A DNA stretch of 32,000 nt from Halomicronema hongdechloris C2206 (GTDB taxonomy: Bacteria; Cyanobacteriota; Cyanobacteriia; Phormidesmidales; Phormidesmidaceae), in contig NZ_CP021983.2 in assembly GCF_002075285.3 (NCBI RefSeq), forward strand, positions 3,090,001 to 3,122,000. The letters are read 5' to 3'. Position 1 is the stretch's first letter, and each line of letters begins with the position of its first letter. A program made the translations under genes and the position numbers. The notes beneath the pieces are model-generated. The model made no database searches. It was not told where the DNA came from and saw only the letters and a list, made by a program, of their open reading frames with translations. Of this stretch, positions 14,363-22,111 are shown in pieces.

Positions 14363-14824
14363 GTGGGTGGTCTAGATCACGTTGCATCGGTGAGGAGGCG
14401 TCCTGGCATTTGGGGTAGATGTCGTGGGGCCAGGCTTGACGCCCTGGATTCCTGCAGCGGCGGGAATCGTCCATGGCGCTGACGCGCCACACCAAACGAT
14501 GAAAATCGTGTTTACTTTCAGAACAATGACAGAGAACTGTTTTCCTAGGTGAATTAACCGGATTTGATATAACCATAATGGCTGCCGCTATAGAGGAAGC
14601 GCAGCGTCTGAAGAGATAGGCGGGGCCACTTTCACGAGTCGGGCTGACTCCTAGACCGCTGCTGGAACCCAGGCAGCAGTAGCCATGCCATTAAGACAGG
14701 ACATCGTCGAAGGCGATGATCCTTCAGTACTTCAGCAGCCCCCTCGCTTACCGTCTCCATCCCTACTGCTAGCACTTGCAGCGATAACCCTGAGGGATTT
14801 AAACAACCCGTTTGATGCGAAAGA

Positions 14825-15056
14825 GATACCACTATCACCTTTAGTAACATAGATGTTTTTTAACGAGGTGCCGCTAGCTCGTTTAGTAACATGAATGTTT
14901 TTTAACGAGGTACCACTATCACCTTTAGTAACATCAATGTTTCTTAACTAGATACCACTATCACTCGGAGAGATACCACTATCACTTTTAACAACATGGA
15001 TGTTTCTTAACTAGATACCGCTATCACCTTTAGTAACATGGATGTTTCTTTAGTTG
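14825..15056 (+). repeat. 42-43-nt tandem direct-repeat array, 5 full units plus one 21-nt half unit
   Basis: Units start at 14825, 14868, 14910, 14952 (half), 14973 and 15015. The consensus is approximately (g)ataccactatcacctttagtaacatNgatgtttYttaacNag. Units abut with no spacers. Confidence 0.9.
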
Positions 15057-15385
15057 ATGACCCTAGGTGGGAAACTAGCAGTCATAGGGTAGTGATCCCC
15101 TGCTGTAGATTTTTTTGGGCAGAGACATGGGTGGGATATGTCTCAATTCCTGACGCCGCCCATCGTGATCTCGAACTCTTCGAAACCCTGAACCCGATCC
15201 TGCAGGCCCTGAGCCAATTGTGTTTCTTGGTGAAAGATACCGGCAGTGAAGCCTACACCGCCGCCCGAGCGGCTTATAAATCTATCAAGACCAGCGGGAA
15301 GGGCATCAGCCTGGATGAGGTGATCGATAATCTGAAACAACAGTTTCAACGGTCTCGCCGACCCGCGACGGCCAAGGCTGAGTAA
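15038..15385 (+). CDS. Hypothetical protein (115 aa); the start codon lies inside the last tandem-repeat unit
   Basis: ORF only. The C-terminal half looks helical and coding-like (LELFETLNPILQALSQL...). The start is uncertain. Confidence 0.4.
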   Translation: MDVSLVDDPRWETSSHRVVIPCCRFFWAETWVGYVSIPDAAHRDLELFETLNPILQALSQLCFLVKDTGSEAYTAARAAYKSIKTSGKGISLDEVIDNLKQQFQRSRRPATAKAE

Positions 15386-16138: not shown

Positions 16139-16259
16139 CCAGCGGCTGCACGCGGACGCAGGGCCGGTGCGTCTGGATTACCGCTTCGCTATTTTGCAAG
16201 CTCACTACTTCGGCTGGCCGTCGGCGCACCCTGCGCCGGTGAGCCGCGAGCCGTTAGAC
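16133..16259 (+). other. attC-like site of cassette A (127 nt)
   Basis: R'' GCATAAC (16133-16139, containing the GrpB stop) is the exact complement of the cassette start G|TTATGC. The L stems are gcggctGcac (16142-16151) and gtgagccgc (16239-16247), with one extrahelical G. R' is GTTAGAC at 16253-16259. Confidence 0.7.
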
Positions 16260-16279
16260 GGCATTGAGGACGGTTGCGA

Positions 16280-17247: not shown

Positions 17248-17313
17248 GTCTAACAAGCCGATGAAGCTGACGGTCGCCTTCGGCGCCTGCAGCTTATCGG
17301 CGAGCCGTTCGTC
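17248..17313 (+). other. attC-like site of cassette B (66 nt)
   Basis: R'' GTCTAAC is the exact complement of the cassette start G|TTAGAC. The L stems are gccgatGaagctg and cagcttatcggc, with one extrahelical G. R' is GTTCGTC. Confidence 0.7.
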
Positions 17314-17719
17314 GGCAATCGAGAGAGAAATTCTACCAAGGGTCTGACTGGCGGTGGAGCAATCGGCCGTTGTTCAGTTGAGTTCAACTCAGTGATTCCA
17401 ACTCGCGACAGGTTTCAAAAAGTTGTCGTCAGCAGCGTCAGGGTAAGTATTGTTAGCGATTGATTAAGTCTCAACAGTCCCAACAGATCCTGGCGGTTGC
17501 TTGCCTCAGGATCTTAATCGCGAATGGCGGTATCGACGAGTGCGCTCGGTGGGTGTGCGGGGTCTGCCAACTGGCCAAGGTTACGCTTTGTCAACGGTGG
17601 GTCAGTAGCCGAGGTCCCAGTCGATATCGGTGAATGGCCTAGGGTGAGTGGTTTTGAGCGATTGGTCAGTGGGATGAGTTCAGGTTGCGATCGTGGCCGC
17701 CCCCGCCAGAAGGTTGGCC

Positions 17720-17806
17720 CCCGAACCCTGTGTTGGAGCGGTCTGAGCGAAAACTATCGGCTACACTTGAAACGTGCTGCCCAGCCGCACAACTACGCCG
17801 TTATGC
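17720..17806 (+). other. attC-like site of cassette C (87 nt)
   Basis: R'' CCCGAAC ... gcggTctg / cagccgc stems (extrahelical T) ... R' GTTATGC. It resembles the sites at 19808 and 21322 in length and layout. Confidence 0.55.
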
Positions 17807-17833
17807 TGCAAGAAATCATATAAGGAGACAGAC

Positions 17834-18319
17834 ATGGCAAAAATTCCAGTGTTTTATAGCTTTCATTTTGACAATGATGTGATGCGCGTTCAGCAAATAA
17901 GAAACATTGGCATACTCGAAGGAAATTCACCCGCTTCGCCAAATGATTGGGAACGGTTGAAGCGTACAGGTGAGACTGCTGTTGAACGCTGGATTGAAGA
18001 TAATATGAAATACAAGCGCTGCGTTATAGTTTTGATCGGTTCTGATACAGCAAACAGGCCTTGGGTGAAATATGAAATTAAAAAGGCCTGGAATGATCAG
18101 CGAGCGCTCTTGGGTATTTACATCCATAATCTAAAGTGTCCCAGAAATGGTTTTAGTAAAAAAGGAAAAAATCCTTTTGATGAGCTACAGCTTGAGAGCG
18201 GAACAAAGTTGTCTTCCCTCGTTACGTGCTATGACCCTAGCCCATTGAATGCATATGATGAGATTGCTAAAAATGTTGAAAATTGGATCCGCTGGGCCAT
18301 AAAAAATAAGCAAAACTAA
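17834..18319 (+). CDS. TIR-like domain protein of the DUF1863/ThsB type (cassette D, gene 1)
   Basis: 161 aa. An AAGGAG RBS lies 6 nt upstream of the ATG. KIPVFYSFHFDNDVMRVQQIRN ... CVIVLIGSDTANRPWVKYEIKKA ... ALLGIYIHNL matches my recollection of the PF08937 pattern. Confidence 0.75.
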   Translation: MAKIPVFYSFHFDNDVMRVQQIRNIGILEGNSPASPNDWERLKRTGETAVERWIEDNMKYKRCVIVLIGSDTANRPWVKYEIKKAWNDQRALLGIYIHNLKCPRNGFSKKGKNPFDELQLESGTKLSSLVTCYDPSPLNAYDEIAKNVENWIRWAIKNKQN

Positions 18320-18323
18320 GCAC

Positions 18324-18767
18324 ATGGAAAACACTTTCCTTGATATAGACCCCGAATCATCTTCGATCCAAACTCATCTTGGAATTATTCAGAACGTGAT
18401 TCAACGAATGTCCAGTAACAGCTCGGCCTGCAAAGCTTGGTGCGTTAGCTTGGTCGCCGCTGTGTTAGTCCTAGTGGCTGATAAAGGGAAGCCGGAATAT
18501 GCATGGATAGCATTGCTTCCAATTGTAGCATTTGCGGCATTGGATACATATTACTTAGCGCTTGAGAAAGCGTTTCGCAGTTCATACAATGCATTTATCC
18601 GAAAGCTGCACAATAAGCAAATAACAGAACAGGATCTGTATTCGATTTCGCCTGTTGGCAAGATGAGTATTCTTCAAGTAGAAGCGCTAAGGTCTTTCTC
18701 TATATGGGGTTTTTATTTATCCCTTGCAGTTTTGGTATGGGTTACAAAAGCAACAGTGCTGAGTTAA
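18324..18767 (+). CDS. Small three-TM membrane protein of unknown family (cassette D, gene 2)
   Basis: 147 aa. It starts 4 nt after the gene-1 stop. Hydrophobic segments are AWCVSLVAAVLVLVA, AWIALLPIVAFAALDTYYLAL and FSIWGFYLSLAVLVWV. There is a ~35-aa polar N-terminus and a ~45-aa amphipathic loop. Confidence 0.7.
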   Translation: MENTFLDIDPESSSIQTHLGIIQNVIQRMSSNSSACKAWCVSLVAAVLVLVADKGKPEYAWIALLPIVAFAALDTYYLALEKAFRSSYNAFIRKLHNKQITEQDLYSISPVGKMSILQVEALRSFSIWGFYLSLAVLVWVTKATVLS

Positions 18768-18771
18768 ATAA

Positions 18772-18859
18772 ACCTAACATCTACTCGCAAACCAACCGCC
18801 GAGATTTGATCGGTTGTGAAGCAGTGGTTGTCTATAGAGATTGAAGCGGCAGGTTAGGC
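18772..18859 (+). other. attC-like site of cassette D (88 nt)
   Basis: R'' ACCTAAC lies 5 nt after the stop. R' GTTAGGC lies 21 nt before the next ATG. The internal stems are imperfect (atct/agat, caacc/ggttg), so this site is less canonical than the others. Confidence 0.5.
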
Positions 18860-18880
18860 TACCAGAGCACCAATATCAAT

Positions 18881-19762
18881 ATGACTAGCTACCAAAATAA
18901 ATCTGATGACTACGTTTTCATTAGCTACCGAAGAACCGATTTTGACTGGGTGAAAGCATATCTACTACCAAAGCTAAAAGTTTGGAAAGTAAATTATGTA
19001 ATAGATCACCAAGATTTTCTGCCAGGACAACGTATTGCAGGCACCATACGGGATTATATTAGATCATCTCGAAAGGTTATATTCGTATGCACAAGAGAAT
19101 TCCTCGATTCTGAATGGTGTAGAGAAGAGTTAGAAACGGCTCGTGCAGAAGACCCAGGAAGCATTCAGGGAAAATCTATTCCAGTCGTTTTAGATAAGCT
19201 CGGAGTACCTGACCTGCTAAGTGACATAATATGGTGCGATTTATCCAATGACCAAAATGATGCTAATGAATGGAGGAAATTGTGTGTTTCAATAGGTGGC
19301 AGCTGGGACGGCTACAGGGCTATTCAAGATTTGGTTGCAGCTGCAATTGGAGCAGAATACTCCGTATACAAGCAACTGCCAAAGATAAAATTGAAGAAAC
19401 TTGAAAACCATTTCGACGTGAATGGCGGAGCGTATAAAAGGATAAATAATCTCTTAGTTCAACATAGTCAGAAAAAGTGGATAATATCAAACGAACATAA
19501 CCCATCTACCTATCTAATATTAGACATTCAAGTGAAACCTAATGGAGGCGATGGGTACGTTGCCGAGACAAAGGAATATTGGTATCTTAGATGGTATTCA
19601 TTAAGGGATCAAAAATACCGACATATATACAATGAAACAAATCAGCAATTATATAAAGTTCAAAACTTGAACGGATCGTATAAAGTGGTGGACAACATTT
19701 ACCCAGCTCCTAGGAAGAGGTGGTGGCGATCAATATTAAATTACGTATTGAAGTTTAGGTAA
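18881..19762 (+). CDS. TIR domain protein with an uncharacterised ~150-aa C-terminal domain (cassette E)
   Basis: The N-terminus YVFISYRRTDFDWVKAYLLPKL ... RKVIFVCTREFLDSEWCREELETA is a classical TIR (TIR_2-like) with the conserved Glu. I cannot assign the C-terminal part (WYLRWYSLRDQKYRHIYNETNQQLYKV...). Confidence 0.8.
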   Translation: MTSYQNKSDDYVFISYRRTDFDWVKAYLLPKLKVWKVNYVIDHQDFLPGQRIAGTIRDYIRSSRKVIFVCTREFLDSEWCREELETARAEDPGSIQGKSIPVVLDKLGVPDLLSDIIWCDLSNDQNDANEWRKLCVSIGGSWDGYRAIQDLVAAAIGAEYSVYKQLPKIKLKKLENHFDVNGGAYKRINNLLVQHSQKKWIISNEHNPSTYLILDIQVKPNGGDGYVAETKEYWYLRWYSLRDQKYRHIYNETNQQLYKVQNLNGSYKVVDNIYPAPRKRWWRSILNYVLKFR

Positions 19763-19807
19763 ATGACTTAACATAATCTCTGGTGTAGACAATGCCCTGG
19801 CCCTGCC

Positions 19808-19893
19808 GCCTAACCCTACACAGGAGCGGACGGAATTTATAATCCCGGCATCGATGCAAAAATATTGGCCGCCGCTCAACTTCGACGTTATGC
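19808..19893 (+). other. attC-like site of cassette E (86 nt)
   Basis: R'' GCCTAAC is the exact complement of the cassette start G|TTAGGC (18853-18859). The L stems are gagcggAcgg and ccgccgctc, with an extrahelical A. R' is GTTATGC. Confidence 0.7.
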
Positions 19894-20002: not shown

Positions 20003-20230
20003 ATGAGTATTCCTATCATCGACGAGGTTGTTGAACAATTGAAGGTCATGCCTCAACCCTTGCAAAGGCAGGTGCTTGAATTCGTTCGATCGCTGGTAAA
20101 AGCGGAAGTCCGAGGTACACCAGGGCATCAATTGTTACGTTTCGCTGGTTCAATTCCCTCTGATGACCTTCAATTAATGCGTGAGGCGATCGAGCAAGAT
20201 TGTGAGCGAGTCGATATTAGTGAGTGGTAG
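20003..20230 (+). CDS. Putative antitoxin paired with the downstream PIN toxin (VapB-like)
   Basis: 75 aa. GGAGG RBS. It overlaps the PIN ORF start. The C-terminus SIPSDDLQLMREAIEQDCERVDISEW is typical of cyanobacterial PIN-associated antitoxins as I recall them. Confidence 0.6.
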   Translation: MSIPIIDEVVEQLKVMPQPLQRQVLEFVRSLVKAEVRGTPGHQLLRFAGSIPSDDLQLMREAIEQDCERVDISEW

Positions 20231-20546
20231 GTTTTTGCTCGATACCAACATCGTTATTGCACTTCTTGCAGATGAGGCGATCGTTAAAGACAATCTTGCT
20301 CAAGTCAGTGAAGTTTTCATTCCAAGCATTGTCATTGGTGAGCTGTGTTATGGAGCCAGAAAGTCAGGACGAGTTGAAGCAAACCTAGCAAGAGTTGATG
20401 AATTAGTGCGATCGCATATCGCCGTAGGTTGGGTTGAGACACGAAACCCAACACTCACAGGCTTTAGCCAGTATAATTGTACGGTGGGCATTATCTTTTC
20501 CGAGATCCTTGCTAACCCATACTCAACCTACAATGCCCACCACTGA
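20220..20546 (+). pseudogene. vapC: VapC-like PIN-domain toxin, truncated after ~62 codons by a repeat insertion
   Basis: From the GTG it reads SGRFLLDTNIVIALL ... IPSIVIGELCYGARKS ... ARVDELVRS. From ~20405 the frame runs into the HIP1 and gttgggtt hairpin repeat (HIAVGWVETRNPT). The distal PIN acidic residues are missing. Confidence 0.65.
20405..20469. repeat. ~65-nt repeat core (HIP1 plus gttgggttgagRcacgaaacccaac hairpin), copy 1
   Basis: Near-identical to 22048-22111. Both copies are followed by scattered tgcccacc motifs, suggesting a MITE-like element. Confidence 0.8.
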
Positions 20547-22047: not shown

Positions 22048-22111
22048 AGTGCGATCGCATATCACCGTAGATTGGGTTGAGGCACGAAACCCAACACCCT
22101 CAGGCTAAGCC
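22048..22111. repeat. ~65-nt repeat core, copy 2
   Basis: agtgcgatcgcatatcaccgtagattgggttgaggcacgaaacccaacaccctcaggctaagcc; compare 20405-20469. Confidence 0.8.

Follow-up and report, generated by a model that had tools for sequence, protein, structure and literature searches.

Two small adjacent genes in a cyanobacterial chromosome, one encoding a TIR protein and the other a membrane protein, raise the question of whether they form a minimal defence module of a new kind or belong to an anti-phage system that has already been catalogued. The pair lies in a stretch of 32,000 nt from Halomicronema hongdechloris C2206 (contig NZ_CP021983.2, positions 3,090,001 to 3,122,000 of the forward strand), which we call the window and whose own numbering is used throughout. 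A preliminary description made from these letters alone had considered the pairing undescribed. Evaluating both proteins and their relatives against known systems, we find that the two genes, named thsB (open reading frame 1, ORF1) and thsF (ORF2) hereafter, very probably constitute a type V Thoeris anti-phage system, which consists of ThsB and ThsF. The locus would then be a cyanobacterial, cassette-borne example of a recently defined and very widespread type of defence.

The thsB-thsF pair and its relation to type V Thoeris

The two genes stand on the same strand exactly 4 nt apart (Table 1), and the product of the second is identical (100%) to XM38_029560. Together they form an islet of 41% guanine-cytosine (GC) content inside a 58% GC chromosome, with ORF1 at 0.399 and ORF2 at 0.421 compared with about 0.58 in the flanks on both sides; the AT-richness first remarked on is real, except that the lowest-GC 60-nt lines at the pair reach 0.35 and not the 0.30 that had been given. 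A longer version of ORF1, starting from a GTG at 17774, is probably spurious because the ATG carries a ribosome-binding site and agrees with the starts of the homologues.

ORF1 matches the Pfam family ThsB_TIR (PF08937) at 4e-24 and 85 bits, the curated cutoff being 21.2, and the PADLOC ThsB model PDLC00433 at 2.8e-70, in keeping with its initial placement among ThsB/DUF1863-type TIR proteins. Its nearest solved structure is chain A of PDB 8WCF (160 aa, E 1.3e-58, full length), a deposition titled ‘Molecular chaperone Tir’ for which our literature search found no papers; judged by sequence, 8WCF is probably a ThsB belonging to the ORF1 clade, and the structure of so close a relative would be a useful aid for work on the signal of that clade. 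ORF1 also matches B. cereus ThsB (PDB 6LHY/9B7D) at about 1e-16, and the alignment sets E81, within WVKYEI, against the RYEI Glu of the B. cereus protein, which is reported to be its catalytic E85 (Ofir et al. 2021). E81 is conserved and represents the putative catalytic Glu of ORF1.

The AlphaFold2 model of ORF2 is all-helical (pLDDT 89.8, pTM 0.78), with helices at residues 13-54, 57-96, 102-106, 114-123 and 125-146. Kyte-Doolittle hydropathy read together with this model confirms the three hydrophobic helices described at the outset, at about 36-53, 59-79 and 125-146, of which two are strong and one is moderate (hydropathy maxima centred at about 42-45 and 69-71, the C-terminal one weaker). 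Residues 80-124 form a basic segment with 7 K/R that is predicted to be cytoplasmic, an N-terminal amphipathic helix is conserved in ThsF, and R28, K37 and E81 of ORF2 are invariant in 108 cluster representatives. The family is very large and highly conserved: clustered at 90% identity, the hits of a first search made up over 1,100 clusters, the 120 best listed matches showing 66-100% identity and coming from several phyla, and a profile search (E <= 1e-3) returned 3,953 clusters at 50% identity.

Thoeris types V to XI were defined by Yirmiya et al. (bioRxiv 10.64898/2025.12.03.692087, Dec 2025), who describe type V as ThsB plus ThsF and validated it from B. thuringiensis DAR 81934 and Bacillus sp. 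1NLA3E. In the same work, ThsF has three membrane-spanning helices and the label ‘DUF2270’, its model being a homo-heptamer that resembles a channel and has basic pockets between protomers, and the DAR 81934 TIR makes 3' cyclic ADP-ribose (3'cADPR), a molecule toxic to system-bearing cells only, and the Tad1 sponge abolishes defence (10.64898/2025.12.03.692087). The validated B. thuringiensis ThsB of their Table S1 corresponds at 100% identity to the protein we list as P0271, and the 141-aa gene immediately 3' of it on the genomic contig served as our ThsF reference, a choice in line with their Table S2, where TIR and effector have consecutive IMG gene ids.

With this reference, ORF2 aligns by BLASTP at 3e-15 (38% identity, residues 9-89), and an hhalign comparison with a profile built from 108 diverse relatives of ORF2 gives a probability of 99.4% (E 2.6e-21, 124 columns), so that the homology extends over nearly the full length. 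Two orthologous loci connect the pair to the published catalogue directly: the TIR domains of Salinimonas chungwhensis DSM 16280 and Thiomicrospira sp. WB1, 65% and 58% identical to ORF1, stand verbatim in Table S1 of Yirmiya et al. as ‘DUF2270 - Type V’, and in both genomes the gene immediately 3' of the TIR gene is an ORF2 homologue at 63-64% identity. The layout is likewise that of type V, namely a two-gene operon in which a TIR gene is followed by an effector of about 140-150 aa with three hydrophobic helices, and the invariant R28 and K37 together with the basic segment 80-124 would be compatible with basic inter-protomer pockets. Unlike the validated ThsBs, which have 252 aa and carry a canonical TIR as well as an N-terminal extension, ORF1 is a 161-aa protein of the DUF1863 type; the 38% identity that BLASTP gives between ORF2 and validated ThsF covers only the N-terminal half; and the window copy resides in a cyanobacterium, on an attC-bounded cassette.

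Several points weigh against the type V assignment. The validated type V ThsBs belong to other TIR clades than ORF1, TIRs in ORF1's own sequence cluster also serve type XI Thoeris, and no toxicity of 3'cADPR was seen with the second of the validated type V systems (10.64898/2025.12.03.692087). The only type V system of proteobacterial origin to have been tried, that of V. cholerae with a TIR of yet another clade, did not protect E. coli, and the effector labels of Table S1 are cluster-based and, according to the authors, noisy (10.64898/2025.12.03.692087). To these we add that ORF2 has no match to Pfam PF10028 (DUF2270) at E <= 1 and that 9 of its 108 relatives match this family below its cutoff of 25 bits (best E 9e-4). 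The validated B. thuringiensis ThsF itself has no Pfam match at E <= 0.01, though it is labelled ‘DUF2270’ in the paper, and because it too fails that hidden Markov model (HMM), PF10028 is not usable as a criterion for type V.

A second catalogue contains the pair as well. PADLOC lists 145 PDC systems, untested candidates whose prediction rests on their embedding in BREX, DISARM or type I restriction-modification (RM) systems (Payne et al., bioRxiv 10.1101/2024.01.29.577857), and both component HMMs of one of them, PDC-M50, match our adjacent genes, with M50B on ORF1 (4.6e-60) and all four M50A models (PDLC04684-04687) on ORF2 (1.6e-28 to 1.2e-15). PDC-M50 is, however, a prediction without a mechanism, on which our literature search found no papers, and the window copy stands outside any RM or BREX system.

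These matches bear on the initial view that the two genes represent an undescribed minimal TIR-membrane system, possibly SLATT/2TM-like. In its favour, ORF2 has no family above threshold in Pfam or NCBIfam, and a Foldseek search of its model against the PDB gave non-specific helical-bundle matches only (best E 1.3). The SLATT/2TM identity was tried and rejected, ORF2 having no SLATT match at E <= 1 and 1 of its 108 relatives matching SLATT_6 (E 0.0077). The claim of novelty is refuted because the pair already matches a catalogued system, both as PADLOC PDC-M50A/B and as type V Thoeris, and we give this reading almost no credence.

Other Thoeris types resemble the locus in part. Type XI (ThsB plus HIT hydrolase) has TIRs in cluster 2661146773, which also holds TIRs very similar to ORF1, and shares with it the pattern FYSFHY..RVQ..RNI..VLIG..RxWVxYEIxKAW, but its effector is a soluble HIT hydrolase and there is no HIT gene near ORF1. 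Types I (ThsA, SIR2-SLOG) and II (ThsC, TM-Macro) likewise use a ThsB TIR as sensor, and the effector of type II also acts at the membrane; in contrast to both, ORF2 lacks a soluble ligand-binding domain, and no SIR2, SLOG or Macro domain was found in ORF2, ORF3 (the next gene downstream) or the neighbouring ORFs, which upholds the earlier statement that no ThsA-type effector accompanies this ThsB. Closest in genomic setting are the BRiCs brc22/brc23, ‘Tragantia’, two-gene cassettes with ThsB that confer phage protection (‘Mobile Integrons Encode Phage Defense Systems’, bioRxiv 10.1101/2024.07.02.601719). They too combine a ThsB homologue with a partner other than ThsA on a compact two-gene integron cassette, but that partner has about 300 aa and another fold and is not ThsF, and they reside in mobile class 1 integrons with an integrase.

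TIR partners of ThsF and the proposed signalling route

Linkage of ORF2 homologues to TIR genes was evaluated in a sample of 30 fetched loci from Cyanobacteria, Proteobacteria, Chloroflexia, Elusimicrobia and one Methanosarcinales metagenome-assembled genome (MAG). A TIR gene adjoins the ORF2 homologue in 29 of the 30, with differing TIR types and gene orders, so the expectation that the two genes would be conserved neighbours is borne out; the sole locus lacking a TIR neighbour (L027) holds a truncated 122-aa copy of ORF2. An ORF1-clade ThsB (>= 45% identity) precedes the ORF2 homologue in 20 loci, immediately so except in one (L028), which makes it the commonest pairing in the sample; what remains of interest is the signal of this clade, together with the cassette-type mobility of the block described below. 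A different ThsB clade occupies the 5' position in three further loci, and six have a TIR of another type (L014, L017, L018, L022, L023 and L030). In five of these six the TIR gene lies 3' of the ORF2 homologue, the exception being L018, where a different ThsB-type TIR lies upstream and is cut by the contig end. The downstream partners comprise a canonical TIR_2 protein, a 476-aa protein with a C-terminal TIR, a 780-aa SEFIR/TIR-EAD2-VMAP protein and a 223-aa ThsB-like protein, and all divergent TIR neighbours scanned against Pfam scored above the curated thresholds.

In either gene order, ThsF thus accompanies at least five TIR architectures that are unrelated to one another, and one conserved small protein combined with interchangeable TIRs is the signature of a Thoeris effector. 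Sensor swapping around one effector is typical of Thoeris. Two TIR genes per ThsF locus occur in Shewanella algae, in a TARA scaffold and in L028, and Table S1 of Yirmiya et al. lists adjacent IMG gene ids for TIR genes. A Klebsiella plasmid carries a B. thuringiensis-type TIR directly beside an ORF2 homologue (37.7% identity); on B. cereus and Priestia plasmids with B. thuringiensis-like TIRs, no ThsF ORF adjoins the TIR. The homologous pairs also keep defence company, lying inside or beside type I RM loci (in Thiomicrorhabdus the pair is embedded in one), beside HipBA and beside Gabija.

Three neighbourhoods deserve separate mention. On the B. thuringiensis DAR 81934 contig FNYB01000013.1 (L034:1-6759), the validated type V Thoeris stands directly beside a Gabija-like pair consisting of an OLD-TOPRIM ATPase and a UvrD helicase. 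A Methylomarinum MAG (L023:4126-6899) has a ThsF homologue overlapping the start of the 780-aa SEFIR/TIR-EAD2-VMAP gene, whose protein is a component of vWA-MoxR-associated ternary systems, an arrangement suggesting that a TIR sensor of far greater size can be coupled to ThsF. A thsB-thsF pair whose products share 45% and 57% identity with those of the window occurs on a contig binned to a MAG of an uncultured Methanosarcinales archaeon (L021:7494-8426), possibly through inter-domain transfer or as a binning artefact.

Starting from the homology of both components, their pairing across phyla, the conserved Glu and the conserved polar and charged residues of ThsF, we propose a route for the window pair by analogy with the validated Bacillus system. 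Phage infection would activate ThsB (ORF1), which by way of E81 would convert NAD+ into a cyclic ADP-ribose-type signal. ThsF, as a homo-oligomer with basic pockets on its cytoplasmic face, would in turn bind this signal there, and the oligomer would then open or breach the membrane, so that the cell is killed or arrested and phage replication stops. The preliminary suggestion that the second gene acts as a membrane-disrupting effector agrees with what has been found for its homologue ThsF.

A quite different division of labour would make the TIR itself a toxic, NAD+-depleting effector and leave to the membrane protein only the part of anchor, regulator or sensor, with no diffusible signal. 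Many bacterial TIRs are NADase effectors, and Yirmiya et al. concede the possibility for unverified configurations. We nevertheless consider it very unlikely for this pair, given that exogenous 3'cADPR in the validated system is toxic to type V cells only and that Tad1 abolishes defence there, that the range of TIR architectures beside ThsF fits a common effector with interchangeable signal producers, and that ORF1 is a bare 161-aa TIR with no membrane-interaction module.

Within type V Thoeris, the identity of the signal is a separate matter. The sequence cluster held in common with type XI and the inactivity of 3'cADPR in the second type V system make the signal molecule of the ORF1 clade uncertain, and the type XI TIRs made none of the known molecules or cADPR isomers (10.64898/2025.12.03.692087). 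A tentative and rather doubtful extension is that ORF1-clade ThsB makes a nucleotide other than 3'cADPR and that the large proteobacterial and cyanobacterial ThsF subfamily is a membrane receptor for a novel TIR product, with ORF3 optionally supplying a second input, such that the two cassettes described below would be one modular immune circuit.

The mobile block and ORF3

The preliminary description had the pair bounded by attC-type sites and moving as one integron cassette. The pair does lie between attC-like sites, but the unit that moved is larger, as revealed by contig L036, which is 2,470 nt long, comes from a different sample and was compared with the window by blastn and junction alignments. 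This contig carries the same three genes, thsB, thsF and ORF3, at 88%, 95% and 91% amino-acid identity with all ORFs open, and its homology to the window covers exactly 17800-19887, beyond which the flanks are unrelated. On the left, the break falls at the GTT of the R' box GTTATGC at 17800-17806, which forms the left limit of the mobile block, and homology runs from GTTA at 17800. On the right, it follows the first base, G, of the R' box 19887-19893, homology ending in ...TTCGACG at 19887 (...CAACTTCGACG). Both breaks are at the G|TT crossover points of integrons, and the moved unit therefore comprises two cassettes, thsB-thsF and ORF3 (Table 1): thsBF and the second TIR gene have moved together by attC-type recombination. 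Such mobility agrees with a growing picture of integron cassettes as vehicles by which compact defence systems spread.

Table 1. Coordinates of the thsB-thsF locus and associated features in the 32,000-nt window.
Feature	Positions	Strand	Basis and remarks
Shine-Dalgarno-like AAGGAG	17822-17827	+	Read from sequence; 6 nt 5' of the ORF1 ATG; kept in L036
ORF1 thsB, 161 aa, first residues MAKIPVFYSFHFDND	17834-18319	+	ThsB/DUF1863-type TIR; predicted phage sensor and signal synthase
ORF2 thsF, 147 aa	18324-18767	+	Predicted membrane effector, three hydrophobic helices
ORF3, 293 aa, N-terminal canonical TIR and C-terminal NTF2-like domain	18881-19762	+	Pfam TIR_2 at 4.8e-23; AlphaFold2 pLDDT 81
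Mobile block, 2,088 bp, two cassettes, three genes	17800-19887	+	93.7% nucleotide identity to L036; GC 0.407 vs 0.58 in flanks
attC-like site closing the preceding ORF-less cassette	17722-17806	+	Architecture like 19808-19893, 3' 26 nt 85% identical; similarity and folding, weaker call
attC-like site ending the thsB-thsF cassette, R'' ACCTAAC / R' GTTAGGC	18772-18859	+	Pattern search and folding
attC-like site ending the ORF3 cassette, R'' GCCTAAC / R' GTTATGC	19808-19893	+	Pattern search and folding
Possible attC-like hairpin directly 3' of the epimerase gene	17248-17311	+	GTCTAAC, 12-13 bp stem with one bulged base, degenerate R' box; weak

The two best attC-like sites, those ending the thsB-thsF and ORF3 cassettes, have RYYYAAC/GTTRRRY boxes, 6/7 R-box complementarity and internal stems. 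A strict attC pattern run over the window returned only these two as clean sites, along with a false positive inside a coding region at 784-855, and the form CTAAC-N45-75-GTTAKGC occurs twice compared with 0.12 occurrences expected by chance. The site between the two cassettes is kept in L036 as ACTTAAC...GTTAAGC; for the one at 19808-19893, comparing window and L036 by eye showed two L-box substitutions that are not compensatory and lend no added structural support. The weak candidate at 17248-17311 folds at -28.5 (top) and -29.3 (bottom) kcal/mol and has a partial repeat at 16235-16263. A search of the window's 20 largest or nearest ORFs turned up no tyrosine recombinase or integrase, and the sites represent at best a cluster of attC sites lacking an integrase. 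Among the other genomes, attC-like sites beside the pair were seen at a few loci only (L022, L002/L003 and L026), so a cassette location of thsBF is occasional and not the rule.

The state of the array raises the question of whether the pair still works in defence or is merely carried along, silent or decaying, in a relic cassette array. Pointing that way are the lack of an integrase and of any obvious cassette promoter (Pc) within the 32 kb, the ORF-less stretch upstream at 17312-17799, and a neighbouring VapC apparently interrupted by a repeat element. Both ORFs are, however, intact and full length and keep all family-invariant residues and the putative catalytic Glu, and the L036 copy has diverged by about 6% in DNA while its three ORFs remain open at 88-95% amino-acid identity, which therefore indicates purifying selection. 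Loss of function thus seems highly improbable to us.

ORF3 adds a second TIR gene to the block. Foldseek searches of its model gave TLR/MyD88 TIR domains and, for the C-terminal domain, ARC6/PARC6 (intermembrane-space) and CaMKII-hub folds. The three genes could accordingly be read as a single system in which ORF3 is a second ThsB-type sensor feeding ThsF, as in multi-TIR Thoeris loci, and two observations speak for this: all three genes recur within one 2,088-bp block at 93.7% identity in a second, unrelated context, where ORF3 is again linked to thsBF, and several ThsF loci have two TIR genes (those of Shewanella algae, the TARA scaffold and L028, besides the adjacent IMG ids of Table S1). 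Against it stand the attC-like site between ORF2 and ORF3, the absence of ORF3 homologues from the other 30 ThsF loci, and a family of only 24 matches in a protein search, compared with thousands for ThsF; a metagenome scan for ORF3 relatives found none. Moreover, ORF3 homologues occur apart from thsBF, one at 51% identity in its own cassette after a perfect attC (GCCTAAC...GTTAGGC; L037) and one at 73% identity in an unrelated context between a membrane protein and a topoisomerase (L038). We therefore regard a three-gene system as unlikely, though as a reading that retains some weight. Because it has its own cassette in one genome and another context in a second, and is absent from those 30 loci, we treat ORF3 as a separate cassette that co-travels with the pair thsBF, any functional link between them being putative.

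Neighbouring features of the window

Around the mobile block, the window holds the housekeeping genes tmk, holB, an ABC exporter, GrpB, an epimerase, EamA, gcvT and gcvP as well as a VapBC pair, which thsBF adjoins. The stretch of about 490 bp between two attC-like sites at 17312-17799 has no convincing ORF and looks like an empty or non-coding cassette just 5' of thsB. Upstream of it, within a low-GC stretch (0.45), a 42-nt unit is tandemly repeated about 6-7 times at positions 14781-15065, its copies sharing 61-82% identity with the one taken as reference; these repeats extend into the start of a 115-aa ORF (15038-15385) with no Pfam match.

Downstream of the block, a 59-nt repeat is present in two copies that are 92% identical (20405-20463 and 22048-22106), holds the cyanobacterial HIP1 motif GCGATCGC and forms the hairpin GGGTTGAG-CACGA-AACCC. 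The PIN/VapC ORF at 20181-20546 is overlapped in its 3' part by the first of these copies, and its PIN match covers profile positions 2-69 of 120 only. Because the repeat overlaps the ORF and the PIN match is partial, the VapC toxin gene may have been disrupted by an insertion resembling a miniature inverted-repeat transposable element.

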